The notes beneath the pieces are model-generated. The model saw only the letters and a list, made by a program, of their open reading frames with translations. It was not told where the DNA came from and did no database searches. DNA of 64,000 nucleotides. It comes from Candidatus Latescibacterota bacterium. GTDB lineage: Bacteria > Latescibacterota > CBDEFO01. The DNA is taken from positions 96,001 to 160,000 of the forward strand of contig CBDEFO010000006.1 of the NCBI GenBank assembly GCA_965237525.1, given 5' to 3'. The position numbers and the translations under genes were made by a program. Shown in pieces: positions 11,385 to 50,296 of this stretch (position 1 is its first letter; each line of letters starts with the position of its first letter).

Positions 11385-11648
11385 AGAGTAGACAGGGAAA
11401 GGCAAAAGACAGTAGGGGCGTGGGCACTTCGTGCTTTGCTGTCTCCACTCCCCAGCAAAGCGCCCACGGCGCCTCACCCAGCAGACAGGGAGATTGCTTC
11501 GTCAGACAGGAATGTCCGACCCACCAGGTTTTTCCTCTTGCAATGACTGAAGATCGAAGCCAAACGATGTCATTGCCAGCTGAAGCCCAGAGCCTTTAGC
11601 CCAGAGCGAAACGAATGGTCAGCCAAGCAATTCCTATAGAAGGACTAA

Positions 11649-44337: not shown

Positions 44338-44482
44338 ATAGATACACAGGTGAGATTGCCTCGGGGTTTCAGCCCTTGCTACGACGTTGGTTGGTTTTGC
44401 CTCAGTCATTGCTATCCCCGACTGAACATATCGAGGATAGCCAAGTGATCTCGTCACCAGGGACGCCGCCACCCCAGCCTAC

Positions 44483-47400
44483 CTACTTTCTACTGTTCAC
44501 TACTCTCGTATTGTATTGATAGATATAGGAAAGGTGCTCTTCGTCGTAAGGGTAGCTTTCAGCCTCAGGATATGGATAACTGCTCATACTGTGAAACGGC
44601 AGCGGCTCTACTGTGAGGGAATAGGGGGAGTTGTTGTCCATATCCTTCCCGAACCCGTCCGCGAAGAAGAAGAAGTCCCGCACGGTGCCATCGTCTAAGG
44701 GTGGAAGATGGGATGCATCGAAGTTAAGCGTGATCTCGTCGCCGTGGAACAATATGACATACTGGTCATCAATCGCCGTCAAAAGGGGAAGGCAATCCCC
44801 ATACCTGGTGTATCGGCCCGTGTGATCCATCCAGGGGGCAGAACCCGTAATCTTTGAATAGTCATAGACCTTGGGCATTCGTCCGTCGGGGGAGTAGTAG
44901 CTGGCGTAGCCCTTCCAGTGGAGATCAGACACTACGGGAGAGAGCCTCGTCACCTTTGTGGGTATCGGATCGTCTATTATATCGAATAGGATCTGATCCC
45001 AGTAGATGGGCATTGAGGTGGTAATCCTTATCTTATAGTCGGTCCCCGACCCCCGACCTATCTCCGACAGACTCAATCGGGGATCCTCTATGATCTCTAC
45101 CACCATCTCCTTCGGCTCTCCTGCCGGATAGCCCATATCCTCAGATATAGTCTTCCACCTTCCGTCTGCTCCCATTATCTCCAGCCGAGGAGGCAGAAGA
45201 ACTATTCCAGCCTGTGCCGCAGCCAGATTGGATGTCGAATGCGAATACTCCGCGTAACCGTACAGGACGAGAATGACCTTGCCAGTAGCTCTACTGCCCA
45301 CTGTTTGCAGTTCGAGGATAATACTGTGCTCTTTTGCGTATCCGTGGAACTGGGGAGGTAAAAGTTCAAAGTTCGAGGGGTATTTCCTGTCTCTGTGCCT
45401 GATGTAGGGGAGGATGTCGTTTCCATCTTGATCGTAAGCCTTGAAGGGCACGCGGGGATCGGAAAGGACGTGGACTTTGAATCCGGGATACGGAGGTGAC
45501 GAGAGAAGCCTCTCGTTGGGATAGACCTCTGTCCCTTGCGGATGGTCAACTGCCAGAAGTTCCACTTTGTCCAGATAGATGACCTCCTCCAAATGATTGG
45601 CAAACTGGATGGAATATTCTCCTCTTTCTACATTCCGTCCCCCGTCCCCTGTCCCCCGTCCACGAGATTGCTTCGCCTGGCTCGCAATGACAGTCGATAG
45701 GGTTCGCGATGACAGTTCGGTTGTCTTTTCCTTTTGGTCATTGCGAGGGGCAAAACCCCAAAGCAATCTCTCCTGTCCACTGTCTGCTCGCCTGGGTTTG
45801 AATATTTCCCCCGGGATCTTGATATACTCGTCCGTGTCGGGGTAGTAGTACTCCCCCGGGGAGATGAGGTACGATATTATGGCTCCTCCAAGGATGTCCG
45901 TTATGTACTGATACTCAGCACCGTTCCAGACGTAGACGATAGGACACGATGTGCCCTTCCTGTCCAATTCCTCTAACAAGAGGAGCGAGTCGGGTGCCGG
46001 ATCCAGTTCGGTTTGTCTGACTCCACCCGGCCAGAGGATCCTTACAAAGTCTATTTTCTTTCTACTCCCGATGCCGAAGTGGACTGTACGACCGTTCCGA
46101 TCCCCTCTGAGTTCAAGCTTTTGCGACAGCTCCCCCGCTTTTATCTCCACCTTTGCGCCTATGCCGTCTTTGTTGCTGTTCAGGCCTTTCAAATGAACTT
46201 TGAGATAGCCGTTTTTCTCCCCACCCTCGTTGCGAAGGAGGAGTGCACCCGCCTTTGTAGTATCTGCATAGGAGACTAATAGGTCTATATCCCCGTCGTT
46301 GTCAAAATCGGCCGATGCTATCTGATAGCTGACCGCGGGCGCTATATTATCAGAGAGGGGGACAGGGTCGGCAAAGCCACAATCGCGGGATGTCTTCCTG
46401 GATCCCCATTGGTTCTTAAAGAGCCGCGCACCCTGCGACGAGAGGGACACTATGTCCAGATCGCCATCGTTGTCCACATCCAGAAGCTTATAAGCCGATC
46501 CAGGTTCCGCGTCTGCAGAAAGCGTGTGTGAGACCGGGTCGAGGACAAAGAGCCTTTTGCTCTCTTGACTGCGCCTATAGAGACTTGCACCCTTTTCTAA
46601 AGTGAAAAGGAGGTCTATGTATCCGTCCTTGTCATAGTCCCCTGCTGATATGCCGAGTATTTTCCTTACTTCGGAAAGTTCTGACTCTTTGGCAACGTCT
46701 GTGAAGGTCCCCCCTCTGTCGTTGCTGTAGAGGTTTACGGATCTATCGTAGGAGGCCACACAAAAGTCCACATCTCTGTCGTTGTCGTAATCCAAGAAGA
46801 CGCAGTCTGTGCTCCACTTTCCTCCCGGCACTTTAGCCTCATCGGTCACATCGGTAAATCTCCCGTTAGCGTTGTTCCTGTAGAGTACATTTTTCCCGTT
46901 TGCATTGACGACGTAGATGTCCAGGTCGCCGTCGTGGTCGTAGTCAGCAAAGACAGGTCCCCGATTAGGTCGTGGGTCGGGGATCAGGGCATCGCTCCCC
47001 TGCAGCCTACGTAAATTGGCGCTTTGTGTGACATCTTCAAATTGTCCGTCTCCGTCATTCTTGTACAGGATAACTGCACCGCTACTGACCACAAGCAGAT
47101 CCTGGTCTTCATCGTTATCGTAGTCCCCGAAGATGCCCTTTGAGATGGACTCGGTGTCCTTCAGTCCGGCCTCTTCTGTCACATCTTCAAATTGCCCGTC
47201 CGCTTTGTTTCTGTAGAGTCTCCCGAAGATGAAGATGTCCAAAGCCCCGTCGTTATCGTAGTCTCCGAATGAGCCTCTAATTCCAGTAGCCAGGACATCC
47301 TCCCCCTTTCTTCTGGGCGAGGTTAGCTCGACCCCACTTTCCTGCCCACTTATATATGTGACATCTGTGAATCTGATCTCTACAGACGAATCCTCTAGCT

Positions 47401-48145
47401 CTTCAGATACTGTCTCTGTCCGACTTACGGCTTCTGCATATCTGCCCTGCTCTAAATATCCCAATCCCACCGAAGTTGCTATCCCCATCTTTCGGAGACC
47501 TGTGAATATCTCCATCTCCCTTTTGAAGTCTTCCGTTTTATTTAAGCGTCTGAATTCCATGGCCAGGTTGTAGTGAGCGGATGAATTGTTGGGATCCAGT
47601 GAAGTTACCTTTTCAAGCTCCTCCACAGCCCTTTCAATCTCTCCAAGCCTTGAAAGGCAAATACCCAGATTGTAGTGCGCAAAAGGATCAAATGGATCGT
47701 GTTTGACAACCTTTTTGAAGTTGCCGGCGGCAGCTTGATAGTCTCCGTGTGCTTTGTAAATAAGGCCGATCACATAGTAGATGTTCGGATGGTCGGGAGA
47801 TAGCAGGAGCGCCTTTTCAAGTTCTAAGAGCGCCTGATCGTACTTGCCCATATTAAACTTTGCTATGCCGAGATTTATCTGCGCATCTGCATATTTGGGG
47901 GCGATAGAGAGGGATTTGGCGAATTCGGAGGCGGCATCGGAGTAGCTGTACTGCTCAAGATATGCGATGCCGAAGTTATTGTGGCGGTAAGCCTCCTCGG
48001 GGAAGCGTTGAACCTGTTGTTCTGTGGATACTTTGGGGGATTCTTGTTCTGCCTTTTTTTCTACGTCACCGCATTTTATGAATCCAAACAGTAAAAGGAA
48101 TGACAATGTGAATAGGATATAGTATCTGTTCATGTATCCTCCCAT
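44483..48145 (-). CDS. TPR + FG-GAP + ASPIC/UnbV (CRTAC1-like) secreted protein or lipoprotein
   Basis: Signal with Cys; TPR repeats; D.DNDGD.D repeats; SNKDGIGAKV...HFGIG...WPGG and SCP; C-terminal DGFGKDMD...PLPFH.MS.YP. Confidence 0.9.
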   Translation of the reverse strand: MGGYMNRYYILFTLSFLLLFGFIKCGDVEKKAEQESPKVSTEQQVQRFPEEAYRHNNFGIAYLEQYSYSDAASEFAKSLSIAPKYADAQINLGIAKFNMGKYDQALLELEKALLLSPDHPNIYYVIGLIYKAHGDYQAAAGNFKKVVKHDPFDPFAHYNLGICLSRLGEIERAVEELEKVTSLDPNNSSAHYNLAMEFRRLNKTEDFKREMEIFTGLRKMGIATSVGLGYLEQGRYAEAVSRTETVSEELEDSSVEIRFTDVTYISGQESGVELTSPRRKGEDVLATGIRGSFGDYDNDGALDIFIFGRLYRNKADGQFEDVTEEAGLKDTESISKGIFGDYDNDEDQDLLVVSSGAVILYKNDGDGQFEDVTQSANLRRLQGSDALIPDPRPNRGPVFADYDHDGDLDIYVVNANGKNVLYRNNANGRFTDVTDEAKVPGGKWSTDCVFLDYDNDRDVDFCVASYDRSVNLYSNDRGGTFTDVAKESELSEVRKILGISAGDYDKDGYIDLLFTLEKGASLYRRSQESKRLFVLDPVSHTLSADAEPGSAYKLLDVDNDGDLDIVSLSSQGARLFKNQWGSRKTSRDCGFADPVPLSDNIAPAVSYQIASADFDNDGDIDLLVSYADTTKAGALLLRNEGGEKNGYLKVHLKGLNSNKDGIGAKVEIKAGELSQKLELRGDRNGRTVHFGIGSRKKIDFVRILWPGGVRQTELDPAPDSLLLLEELDRKGTSCPIVYVWNGAEYQYITDILGGAIISYLISPGEYYYPDTDEYIKIPGEIFKPRRADSGQERLLWGFAPRNDQKEKTTELSSRTLSTVIASQAKQSRGRGTGDGGRNVERGEYSIQFANHLEEVIYLDKVELLAVDHPQGTEVYPNERLLSSPPYPGFKVHVLSDPRVPFKAYDQDGNDILPYIRHRDRKYPSNFELLPPQFHGYAKEHSIILELQTVGSRATGKVILVLYGYAEYSHSTSNLAAAQAGIVLLPPRLEIMGADGRWKTISEDMGYPAGEPKEMVVEIIEDPRLSLSEIGRGSGTDYKIRITTSMPIYWDQILFDIIDDPIPTKVTRLSPVVSDLHWKGYASYYSPDGRMPKVYDYSKITGSAPWMDHTGRYTRYGDCLPLLTAIDDQYVILFHGDEITLNFDASHLPPLDDGTVRDFFFFADGFGKDMDNNSPYSLTVEPLPFHSMSSYPYPEAESYPYDEEHLSYIYQYNTRVVNSRK
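45665..45770. repeat. Pair of GAGATTGC...GCAATGAC / GTCATTGC...GCAATCTC palindromes lying inside a CDS
   Basis: Intergenic relatives at ~10067-10101, 11490-11547, 11569-11632, 43340-43390, 44352-44385 and 44405-44451. Confidence 0.85.
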
Positions 48146-48295: not shown

Positions 48296-50296
48296 TCAAA
48301 ATATCTGTGAAAATTTAGAAATTGTCTGATCCTGAGGAAGCTTACCTTCAACCACCAGATCATAAATCTTCTTTGCAATGCTAATTTTAGCAACCCGTTT
48401 GGAAGTTCCTATTGCCTTTTCTTTAAAAAATTCTTTTACCCCACTAAATGAGACCTCTTGAAGATCCTCCTTGCTAATGCTCTCTTTACCTAACCGTTTC
48501 TCAAAAATGTTCCTATAAGCAAGGTTTACAGCTTCGAGATAAAAGTCAATATCTATCAAATCCTCGATCACTAGGTCACAGCCTGTTTCTGCTAATGGAT
48601 CAAGAGTTAATATATTATCCTCATTTATGTTGTCCTTTAGCTTTTCTGCAGCTTTCCTCCCCTTTGAGTCGTGGTCTAAAAGTATGACAAGTTTTAGATT
48701 TTCTTTTACAAGAAATATTGCGAGGTATAATATCTTGTCGGCCCCATTAACGGGAAGAACTGAGACTTCACTTGGGTCAATATAGTTTTCGTTCTTTTCA
48801 GAGCATATTTTAGACATTGCTTCCAGTATAAGCTTATCTGAATAGCCCTCCACTAATATATTTTTCTTCGTAGTAAAGAGAGAATCACCTATAGTCATAC
48901 CTATTGAAGCTCTGATTGGTTGAAGGGCATCATAATCTGATTCGTAGAATTTTTCTTCTATTAATGTACCCTTCTTCTCTTCTTTAGAAACTATCCTAAT
49001 CCTCTCTAATTTCTCTAGGTCGATCATAAAGGGAGAGTGGGTGCTAAAAATAATCTGATTTGACTCTGATATTTCCTCTAATGTTTTAAGAAGATCCTTT
49101 TGTCCTGAAGGATGTAGATAAACCCCAGGGTCATCAAGGAGAATTATTGTGTCTTGCAATTCATGTTTAGAACCAGCAGCAAAATTTATATAAAACCGTA
49201 AAAACCACTGAAATCCTTGACTTCTTATACTAGGTGGATGCTCCTTCTTTGTTACATCGTCAAAGATTGAGATTACTATTTCGTTTTTCATAATATCAAT
49301 GTTTACTTCAACCTTTTCTTGCGTCCAAGCCTTATTTACCAAGCCTGTTACATCTGCTGACGCGGTCCTTAGCTGAGAACTCATATCGTATACCTCGGCA
49401 TCTCTGACACGTTCCAGATCATCCAAACCAGACAACTCGATCAAATTAGAGAGAGTCTTGTGTTTTTCCTTATTAGCGAGAAAGGTTGATACAGGTACGG
49501 TATCTTCTAACTCTTCAATATTTGCGAAATACATAAAATCCGGCAAAATTTCTAATATGTAATCAACTACACTTACACTTTCTTCTTCTTCTAATAAAAT
49601 TTCTTCAATCCTATCCTTATAAGGCTTCATTTCTGCAGAAAATACCTGTATATCATCTTGTATTGGACCATCAAGGTTAGGTAAACTAATCAACCTGCTT
49701 TGGAAATCATCAAAAGCCATTGCTACATCAAGATCAGTTTGTGGGTCAAAGGAGATAACCTCATTAATTATCTCTTCATATTGGTTTTTTGAATTGCTAA
49801 ACGGAGTAAATCGTTCGCAGTGACTGTCTAATTTTTCTTTAAACGAGGCGGTGATACTGCTAATAATAGAAAGGTTCTTCTGTATTTCTTTCTTACTAGA
49901 AATATTCAACTCTTCCAAGCAAATATCTGGGCTTTCGGACCTATATGAGTTATCAAAACACTTGGTAACTTGCAGAGTTTTTATTTTCGTGAGTTGGGGA
50001 CTAATTTCCTTTAATGTGCGTTTATCTTGAGATTCTATTTCAAACCAAATTGTTACAATTTCTATATCTTCTTTTTCTATTGCATCTGAGTCTAGCTTTT
50101 TCTTTACTTCTGAATGAAGACACAAGTCATCTTTTACATATTCGTAGTCACTTTTAAAAGACTCCAGAGCTTTGAGAATACATGTTTTGCCAGCTTCATT
50201 TTTCCCAATAAGTGTAGTTATCTTTGAATCTAAGGTTACTTCACCAGAATCTAAAATCGACTTGTACTCTTTGATGCGAAATTTCTTGATTCTCAA
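48296..50296 (-). CDS. OLD-like ABC/AAA ATPase with TOPRIM-like domain, AT-rich
   Basis: GKNEAGKT, RSQGFQWF, LLDDPG.YLH, STHSP, VEGYSD, LDHD and IED; the last few codons may be lost to an extra T. Confidence 0.85.
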   Translation of the reverse strand: MRIKKFRIKEYKSILDSGEVTLDSKITTLIGKNEAGKTCILKALESFKSDYEYVKDDLCLHSEVKKKLDSDAIEKEDIEIVTIWFEIESQDKRTLKEISPQLTKIKTLQVTKCFDNSYRSESPDICLEELNISSKKEIQKNLSIISSITASFKEKLDSHCERFTPFSNSKNQYEEIINEVISFDPQTDLDVAMAFDDFQSRLISLPNLDGPIQDDIQVFSAEMKPYKDRIEEILLEEEESVSVVDYILEILPDFMYFANIEELEDTVPVSTFLANKEKHKTLSNLIELSGLDDLERVRDAEVYDMSSQLRTASADVTGLVNKAWTQEKVEVNIDIMKNEIVISIFDDVTKKEHPPSIRSQGFQWFLRFYINFAAGSKHELQDTIILLDDPGVYLHPSGQKDLLKTLEEISESNQIIFSTHSPFMIDLEKLERIRIVSKEEKKGTLIEEKFYESDYDALQPIRASIGMTIGDSLFTTKKNILVEGYSDKLILEAMSKICSEKNENYIDPSEVSVLPVNGADKILYLAIFLVKENLKLVILLDHDSKGRKAAEKLKDNINEDNILTLDPLAETGCDLVIEDLIDIDFYLEAVNLAYRNIFEKRLGKESISKEDLQEVSFSGVKEFFKEKAIGTSKRVAKISIAKKIYDLVVEGKLPQDQTISKFSQIF

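Follow-up and report, generated by a model that had tools for sequence, protein, structure and literature searches.

A probable composite intergenic repeat carried in frame within a predicted disordered loop of a TPR/ASPIC-UnbV protein from a Latescibacterota bacterium

We describe here a segment of 165 bases within a protein-coding gene of a Candidatus Latescibacterota bacterium that is most probably a single copy of a composite repeat element of intergenic type and that occupies, in frame, a loop of an otherwise intact gene. It probably arrived as a mobile but non-autonomous insert, should according to prediction form a disordered loop of 55 residues, and probably persists because its effect is close to neutral. 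The window, by which we mean the whole stretch of 64,000 nucleotides that was analysed, belongs to a genome of 4.58 Mb that is 96.6% complete (G000). The host gene occupies positions 44483 to 48145 on the minus strand and encodes 1220 residues, with a likely start four codons later, and its product is composed, from the N- to the C-terminus, of a hydrophobic leader, TPRs, FG-GAP-like repeats, an ASPIC/UnbV domain (residues 661–722), and a C-terminal beta region that is conserved and has no annotation. The leader suggests that the protein is exported. Comparison of the C-terminal 575 residues with the PDB by Foldseek gives no matching solved structure (top TM-scores of at most 0.17), and a metagenome scan for near relatives of the gene returned 19 loci, all of at most 49% identity. 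The insert itself, which we refer to as site 1, lies at 45626 to 45790 on the minus strand and adds a net 55 residues (786–840), its precise ends being uncertain by a few codons. A preliminary description of this DNA had pointed to it as an open 165 nt segment within the 1220-residue reading frame, and its coordinates, length and frame are correct.

The insert is a mosaic of small units, in which a heptamer tract at each end encloses a 34-nt unit, a spacer of about 23 nt, a truncated unit and a 28-nt unit, in this order. On the 5' side there is a short tract of two heptamer units (45771 to 45790, minus strand), followed by a 34-nt GTC-tagged bulged hairpin (45737 to 45770, plus strand) with a 5-bp outer stem, a purine bulge, a 4-bp inner stem, and its tag facing into the insert. 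Beyond the spacer are a truncated third hairpin unit (45692 to 45713, minus strand), a 28-nt GTC-tagged bulged hairpin that also has its tag facing into the insert (45664 to 45691, minus strand), and a four-unit G-rich heptamer array (45635 to 45662, minus strand) that is translated as a Gly/Arg-rich stretch. The two oppositely oriented palindromes of the preliminary description correspond to the two hairpins, at 45664–45691 and 45737–45770; the truncated unit between them had been missed. The heptamers that it reported as CCCCGTC/GGACAG are real as tandem arrays, with 17 arrays of at least three units in G000 and 0, 0 and 0 in shuffled sequence, but GGACAG by itself has only six letters and occurs 1935 times on a single strand. 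Of the intergenic clusters with which it compared the insert (11490–11632 and 44352–44451), both are likewise arranged with tags inward and the first has a heptamer; no heptamer tract is seen at 44352. The first cluster extends from 11470 to 11632 and contains the same hairpin family with an adjacent heptamer, and the second (44352 to 44451), just downstream of the host gene, is more degenerate.

The insert is colinear with intergenic composites elsewhere, and the order of its parts is common to two copies in G000 (C7:850351 and C4:85285), with the position of the truncated third unit also occupied in intergenic composite copies. Alignment with an intergenic copy in the sister genome, a single contig (G001), gives 111 of 153 columns identical (73%). 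Judged by this arrangement, the insert appears to be one copy of the composite intergenic element. G000 contains no near-identical donor, its longest good matches being 69–74%, and insertion in one step is for this reason indistinguishable from stepwise build-up. The right end of the insert resembles the tail of the intergenic copy, so the element may have taken the place of a few native codons, and inspection by eye of site 1 and of empty syntenic sites showed no consistent target-site duplication.

That the segment is additional to the protein is evident from its homologs, an alignment that had been proposed as a check and that we have carried out. The gap is real: 78 residues separate two conserved anchors in the window protein, as against 21–23 residues in all 119 homologs outside its own 90% cluster among the best 120 of 1232 hits (98 of them have 23); beyond the genus, the anchor-to-anchor length is 23 in all nine loci that could be parsed out of 18, the other nine having been dropped by the parser. 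Structure prediction, the second proposed check, gives a consistent picture. An AlphaFold2 model of residues 646–1220 has a mean pLDDT of 87.6, with values below 50 in the insert at fragment residues 149–184 and 186–191 and above 90 in the flanking strands, and the insert is thus predicted to be a floppy, disordered 55-residue loop between two strands. In a model of an insert-free homolog, site 1 is an 11-residue inter-strand loop, and all of sites 1 to 3 (see below) fall in inter-strand loops. The proposal that repeat DNA has been absorbed into a tolerated loop is therefore supported by the homolog gap, by two structure models, and by purifying selection on the rest of the gene.

The insert is not a misassembly. 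Repeats are prone to misassembly, and one run that yielded an identical contig was left uncounted, as it is perhaps the window's own source; however, the notion that an intergenic repeat was moved into the host gene by the assembler has virtually no chance of being correct, since the insert is present at the syntenic locus of the single-contig G001 with four internal substitutions, two runs of another study gave gap-free contigs that span it (one carrying the G001 variants), and no identical copy exists elsewhere in G000. The preliminary description had named misassembly as an outcome that would overturn its interpretation, and these independent occurrences answer it.

The host gene contains further repeat-derived sites. 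At least two more palindrome inserts had been reported in the preliminary description, and these correspond to site 3 (45043 to 45085, core 45062–45082, minus strand), a hairpin of a 21-nt family with a heptamer-like tail that adds 10 residues, and to site 4 (about 46954 to 46992, minus strand), where the FG-GAP region (approximately residues 385–398) holds a less firmly delimited and degenerate copy belonging to this 21-nt family. The site 3 loop has 39 residues, compared with 29 in eight of eight parsed outside homologs, and the insert is common to the window gene and both of its close relatives, G001 and P0001, the latter being a protein of a third close relative. Site 2 is a junction at 45281 to 45308 on the minus strand, where the relatives differ from the window: an additional 123-nt tags-inward hairpin dimer follows residue 946 in G001 and P0001, in frame, and is absent from the window gene. 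In its place are heptamer-derived residues (947–954), with a 2-nt overlap at the junction, where the family has a nearly invariant loop motif, and this motif is missing from all three close relatives. Because the remnant is repeat-derived, we infer a deletion at site 2 in the window lineage. One sample gives contigs of both site 2 forms. At site 1, P0001 has a different segment, 17 residues above the norm, that matches a heptamer family (about 50 copies in G000); this allele also occurs in runs of two further studies, its DNA being known only from two 30-letter contig ends and the protein P0001. Sites 1 and 2 thus have two alleles each, and both of the large inserts (site 1, and site 2 of the relatives) are of the tags-inward type. 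We also observe that the 21-nt hairpin family lies in frame within about 40 open reading frames of G000 (42 sites), and that several of these copies are indels between G000 and G001.

Comparison of P0001 with the window protein shows four differences upstream of site 1 and 17 downstream, and the DNA of the relative with the other site 1 allele shows 10/2438 differences versus 12/310 and 29/909; this suggests that a recombination tract had its boundary at site 1 or close to it, in what is a single event. These observations can be read in another way, in which the loops of a likely exported protein are variable under selection and the repeat clusters act both as exchangeable cassettes and as recombination boundaries, making its surface more diverse. 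One gene with four repeat-derived sites, two alleles at each of sites 1 and 2 and a breakpoint at or near one of them lends itself to such a reading, as does the report that cleavage by the nuclease Ssn near NTS hairpins changes homologous integration in Neisseria (PMC11893778). Nevertheless, we consider it unlikely. A uniform pattern scan finds two sites in the host gene, a modest excess for a gene of 3.7 kb, as at least one site is found in 46 of 2660 open reading frames and one other frame also has two; sites 2 and 4 emerged from manual inspection, under criteria that were not extended to the whole genome; and one breakpoint is one event. That the gene is a hot spot for repeat insertion is only suggestive.

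Turnover of the repeats between close relatives is not confined to this gene. Syntenic clusters identified in G000 are present in G001 in 18 cases, absent in six and partial in three, and in the reverse direction the corresponding numbers are 18, 11 and one, in a comparison that covers 1.2 of the 4.5 Mb of G001. Several of these clusters are swapped for other repeats and not cleanly lost.

Purifying selection on the host gene appears ordinary. Comparison with G001 gives a dN/dS of 0.23 over its full length and of 0.22 when the insert is left out (0.24 before the insert and 0.19 after it). The median for 438 ortholog pairs is 0.22, which places the gene at the 53rd percentile, and for the part downstream of the insert neutral evolution is rejected (P=2e-6). 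Within the insert there are three nonsynonymous substitutions and one synonymous, which is compatible with neutrality but, being based on four substitutions, does not differ significantly from the rest of the gene (Fisher P=0.32). The frame is open in the window gene, in G001 and in the third relative, and the four length differences among them are all multiples of three; for indels of at least 15 nt in 505 gene pairs, the same is true of 25 of 26. The preliminary description had entertained a gene starting to decay, with inserts accumulating under relaxed selection, and such early decay would fit the loss of the near-invariant site 2 motif in the three close relatives and the absence of 10 residues near the N-terminus of G001. 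It is, however, very unlikely, and we abandon it, both because dN/dS is at the genome median on either side of the insert (0.24 and 0.19) and because no stop or frameshift is present in three full-length alleles or in contigs spanning site 1, while 35 of 505 ORF pairs (miscalled ORFs included) have a net frameshift. The N-terminal difference is a 30-nt segment of the window (48015–48044), flanked by short direct repeats, that encodes 10 residues after the leader and is absent in G001.

We suppose that the insert is translated. A different possibility is that splicing, ribosome bypass or the like takes the segment out, or skips it, in the RNA or the protein, such that the mature protein is insert-free. 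A length that is a multiple of three and the internal hairpins are what one might look for in this case, but we regard it as highly improbable: an open frame is needless if the segment is excised, yet it is open in both genomes, Rfam gives no match at E<=1 between 44000 and 48500, and the fold of the whole insert is no stronger than that of shuffles (z=-0.97). The 55 residues have no match at E<=10 to a protein family or in NCBIfam, which includes models of the Rickettsia RPE repeats, and a comparison of the same residues with longer proteins gave 26 candidates and none at E<=10, which is weak evidence. A 167-nt contig from an RNA run corresponds to 45394–45556, downstream of the insert and not spanning it, with one difference; DNA carry-over is possible and we have not counted it.

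The bulged hairpins rarely fall within genes. Gene interiors make up 55% of G000, but only two of 227 units are gene-internal, both of them in the site 1 insert, after exclusion of 15 of 17 gene-internal units that belong to a 41-bp tandem array whose 324-codon frame is made of repeat alone; these counts are approximate, as genes were called with a simple longest-ORF script. For the 21-nt family the corresponding number is 42 of 464. Orientation influences whether a copy can be read through, with open frames in about 2.3 of six for tags-inward dimers (n=13) and in 0.3 of six for tags-outward dimers (n=50); the site 1 segment is stop-free in the frame of the host and is open in two of six frames. 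After frame and stop filters, about 21 of 159 clusters would be expected to be gene-internal and one is observed, from which it follows that such inserts are usually harmful, and the site 1 insert may carry a small cost.

These features suggest a plausible sequence of events for the favored model of a nearly neutral mobile insert. Because there is no clear target-site duplication and clusters often replace other sequence, a non-autonomous element would be placed in trans by nick-and-repair rather than by cut-and-paste. Copies that leave an open frame would then survive a frame filter, as the difference in open frames between tags-inward and tags-outward dimers implies, and since only inter-strand loops are hit, a structural filter probably restricts survival to such loops. 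The insert would subsequently be carried as a near-neutral disordered loop that is open to exchange, and could later be lost through in-frame deletion, as appears to have happened at site 2.

The hairpin is abundant in G000 and is not restricted to it. There are 258 units under relaxed criteria versus 3, 6 and 3 in triplet shuffles, and 242 under strict criteria (146 of them paired) versus 1, 0 and 2; in its fold, every unit has a stem of 5 bp, then a purine bulge and then an inner stem. Exact matches to the pattern number 116 in G000 and 93 in G001 and turn up in 10 of 41 genomes from the phylum, against 0 for the reversed control, and they are spread over many phyla (at least 80 loci). At seven of these 80 loci a long open frame crosses the unit, and five of the seven look like real proteins by eye. 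One, verified by comparison with a solved homolog, is a GMP synthase in an unrelated genome labelled Gammaproteobacteria (locus L139, 163–1233), where an in-frame dimer of the bulged hairpin lengthens the glutaminase domain by about 23 residues. More apparent in-frame copies are located in long open reading frames of unrelated genomes (L124, L134, L164 and L165); in L165, heptamer tracts and a tags-inward dimer occur together, as at site 1. G000 contains other repeat arrangements as well. A conserved MITE-like element of about 230–270 nt encloses a tags-outward dimer and is found throughout the genome (e.g. C7:23814–23934 and C7:151931–152091), with a 59-nt dimer spacer in 37 of 50 cases, and when G000 is compared with G001 it is either wholly there or wholly missing. 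A heptamer-family element lies within a 912-codon open reading frame (C8:1895922–1895949), and many 13-mers occur in about 140 copies each, suggesting that one element has been amplified to about 140 copies.

In-frame repeats of this kind have precedents; PMC2884548 and PMC9879509 also deal with known systems. Di Nocera, De Gregorio and Rocco (2013; PMC3733652) describe intragenic CGTC-tagged REPs, in dimers and groups, and include Rickettsia RPE-4 and RPE-6; in-frame REP clusters encode 43–82 residues, and some genes are hit twice. The bulged hairpin shares with them a stem that starts with AT, in-frame copies inside genes and the lack of a dedicated RAYT; its GTC tag and short unpaired tail are at least similar, and like them it is high-copy, mainly intergenic and often in inverted dimers. 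It differs in having 5 bp, a purine bulge and an inner stem in place of an 8–9 bp stem and a 4–5 nt loop, and in belonging to a composite element with heptamer tracts and a truncated third unit. CGTC REPs carry a terminal CGTC tag, or TGTC or CCTC in its place; the base before GTC in the 242 units (GTC being fixed by the search pattern) is T in 91, A in 81, G in 49 and C in 21, with one T and one G among the units of the insert, and the unpaired tail has 3 nt, CTC in the commonest units, whereas CGTC REPs mostly have CCA. Five peptide fragments typical of the frames of the hairpin family gave no match in four text supplements of PMC3733652. The second precedent is the RPE-1 type of Rickettsia, a palindromic repeat of about 150 nt that is read in frame in a conserved protein and is apparently neutral, as in the example of guanylate kinase, and RPEs enter open reading frames often (85 of 728 in R. 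felis; PMC2229807, PMC10969869, PMC1166351). The site 1 insert is similar in that its repeat keeps the frame of a conserved gene under selection and sits at a loop position. It is unlike RPEs in that these are single stem-loops of 105–146 nt with terminal inverted repeats, often in open reading frames, while the insert is a mosaic with no strong overall fold (z as above) and a family that is nearly always intergenic.

The third comparison is with the NTS hairpins and SRM pattern of the Ssn nuclease system (Chenal et al. 2025; PMC11893778), in which Ssn has been shown to cut single-stranded DNA near its hairpin, and not to insert the hairpin. The bulged hairpin resembles NTS in starting with a GTCATT tag and in having C directly after the stem, but none of the 242 units, those of the insert included, fits the published SRM pattern. 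Finally, the inverted-hairpin clusters, mosaic build-up and turnover between close relatives recall REP, REPIN and BIME repeats associated with RAYT (Y1 HUH) proteins, although the bulged hairpin has no GTAG tag and neither G000 nor G001 has a Y1_Tnp that passes the cut-off. The insert thus acts like an RPE or an intragenic CGTC REP, and we do not assign the bulged hairpin to CGTC-1 to -4, to SRM or to RPE, as its stem geometry and pattern do not fit. No description of the bulged-hairpin family or of the host gene was found in the literature searched, which leaves most subscription papers outside it so that novelty is not established, and text-string matches to the tag motif were to unrelated papers alone.

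The surprise is limited in so far as the phenomenon and the size of the insert are already published. The case nonetheless illustrates how new protein sequence can arise from selfish repeats while the host is under normal purifying selection, and a single gene displays one insertion, a second and different one in the same loop of a relative, and what seems to be in-frame loss that leaves repeat-derived residues. It adds an allele series, a frame filter that would explain why only tags-inward dimers are seen here, and a widespread family of bulged hairpins. For annotation, we note that such inserts split alignments and can pass for new domains.

What mobilises the element is a matter on which several observations bear. 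A RAYT was rejected as the driver of the bulged hairpin, as no RAYT-type Y1 transposase was found in G000, with a genome completeness as given above, and the hairpin flanks none of seven Y1 loci examined; beside 80 hairpin copies in other phyla, 145 open reading frames (one per side, within 600-nt flanks) include no Y1_Tnp and no GIY-YIG. An Ssn-type GIY-YIG nuclease is the candidate that we prefer over RAYT, if tentatively and with some doubt. G000 contains a stand-alone GIY-YIG gene of 95 residues within an inverted pair of NTS-like hairpins (C4:479839–480123; locus L050, 1415–1765), a locus that by its organisation appears to be an Ssn-type cassette, and the hairpins around it are of another type than the bulged hairpin. 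The protein has no match in G001, and no Ssn-like protein was found in viral contigs. The bulged hairpin does adjoin a short GIY-YIG gene in two other genomes, G034 (L243/L268, contig C128) and G002 (L251, contig C519, 1498–2312), the latter gene having an internal stop and then two tags-outward dimers. Among Ssn-like loci, three of 30 have a similar hairpin within 400 nt, one of them convincing.

A more elaborate proposal, to which we would give little credence, is that the bulged GTC hairpin is a divergent target of an Ssn-type nuclease subfamily whose cutting during DNA uptake or repair seeds copies and sets recombination boundaries, that strains exchange loops of the exported protein in the form of cassettes built from repeats, and that a repeat-derived deletion scar has replaced a conserved native loop. 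If true, the host gene would be a natural and still-segregating series of loop gain, exchange and loss from selfish DNA.

The surroundings of the host gene offer some minor observations. Directly upstream, in AT-rich DNA, is a 666-residue OLD-like ATPase-TOPRIM protein (48296–50296) that is likely a defence nuclease. Downstream, between 41966 and 44336, are an HTH plus DnaA-N protein, a MerR-like HTH protein and an excisionase-like HTH_17 protein, a run resembling the replication module of an integrated element, of which the part from 43100 on is kept in G001. An ortholog of the host gene in another genome (G010; L007, 1069–2592) has an in-frame TAG at a Trp/Tyr column, with conserved sequence resuming beyond it, which reflects either a nonsense mutation, an error or recoding.
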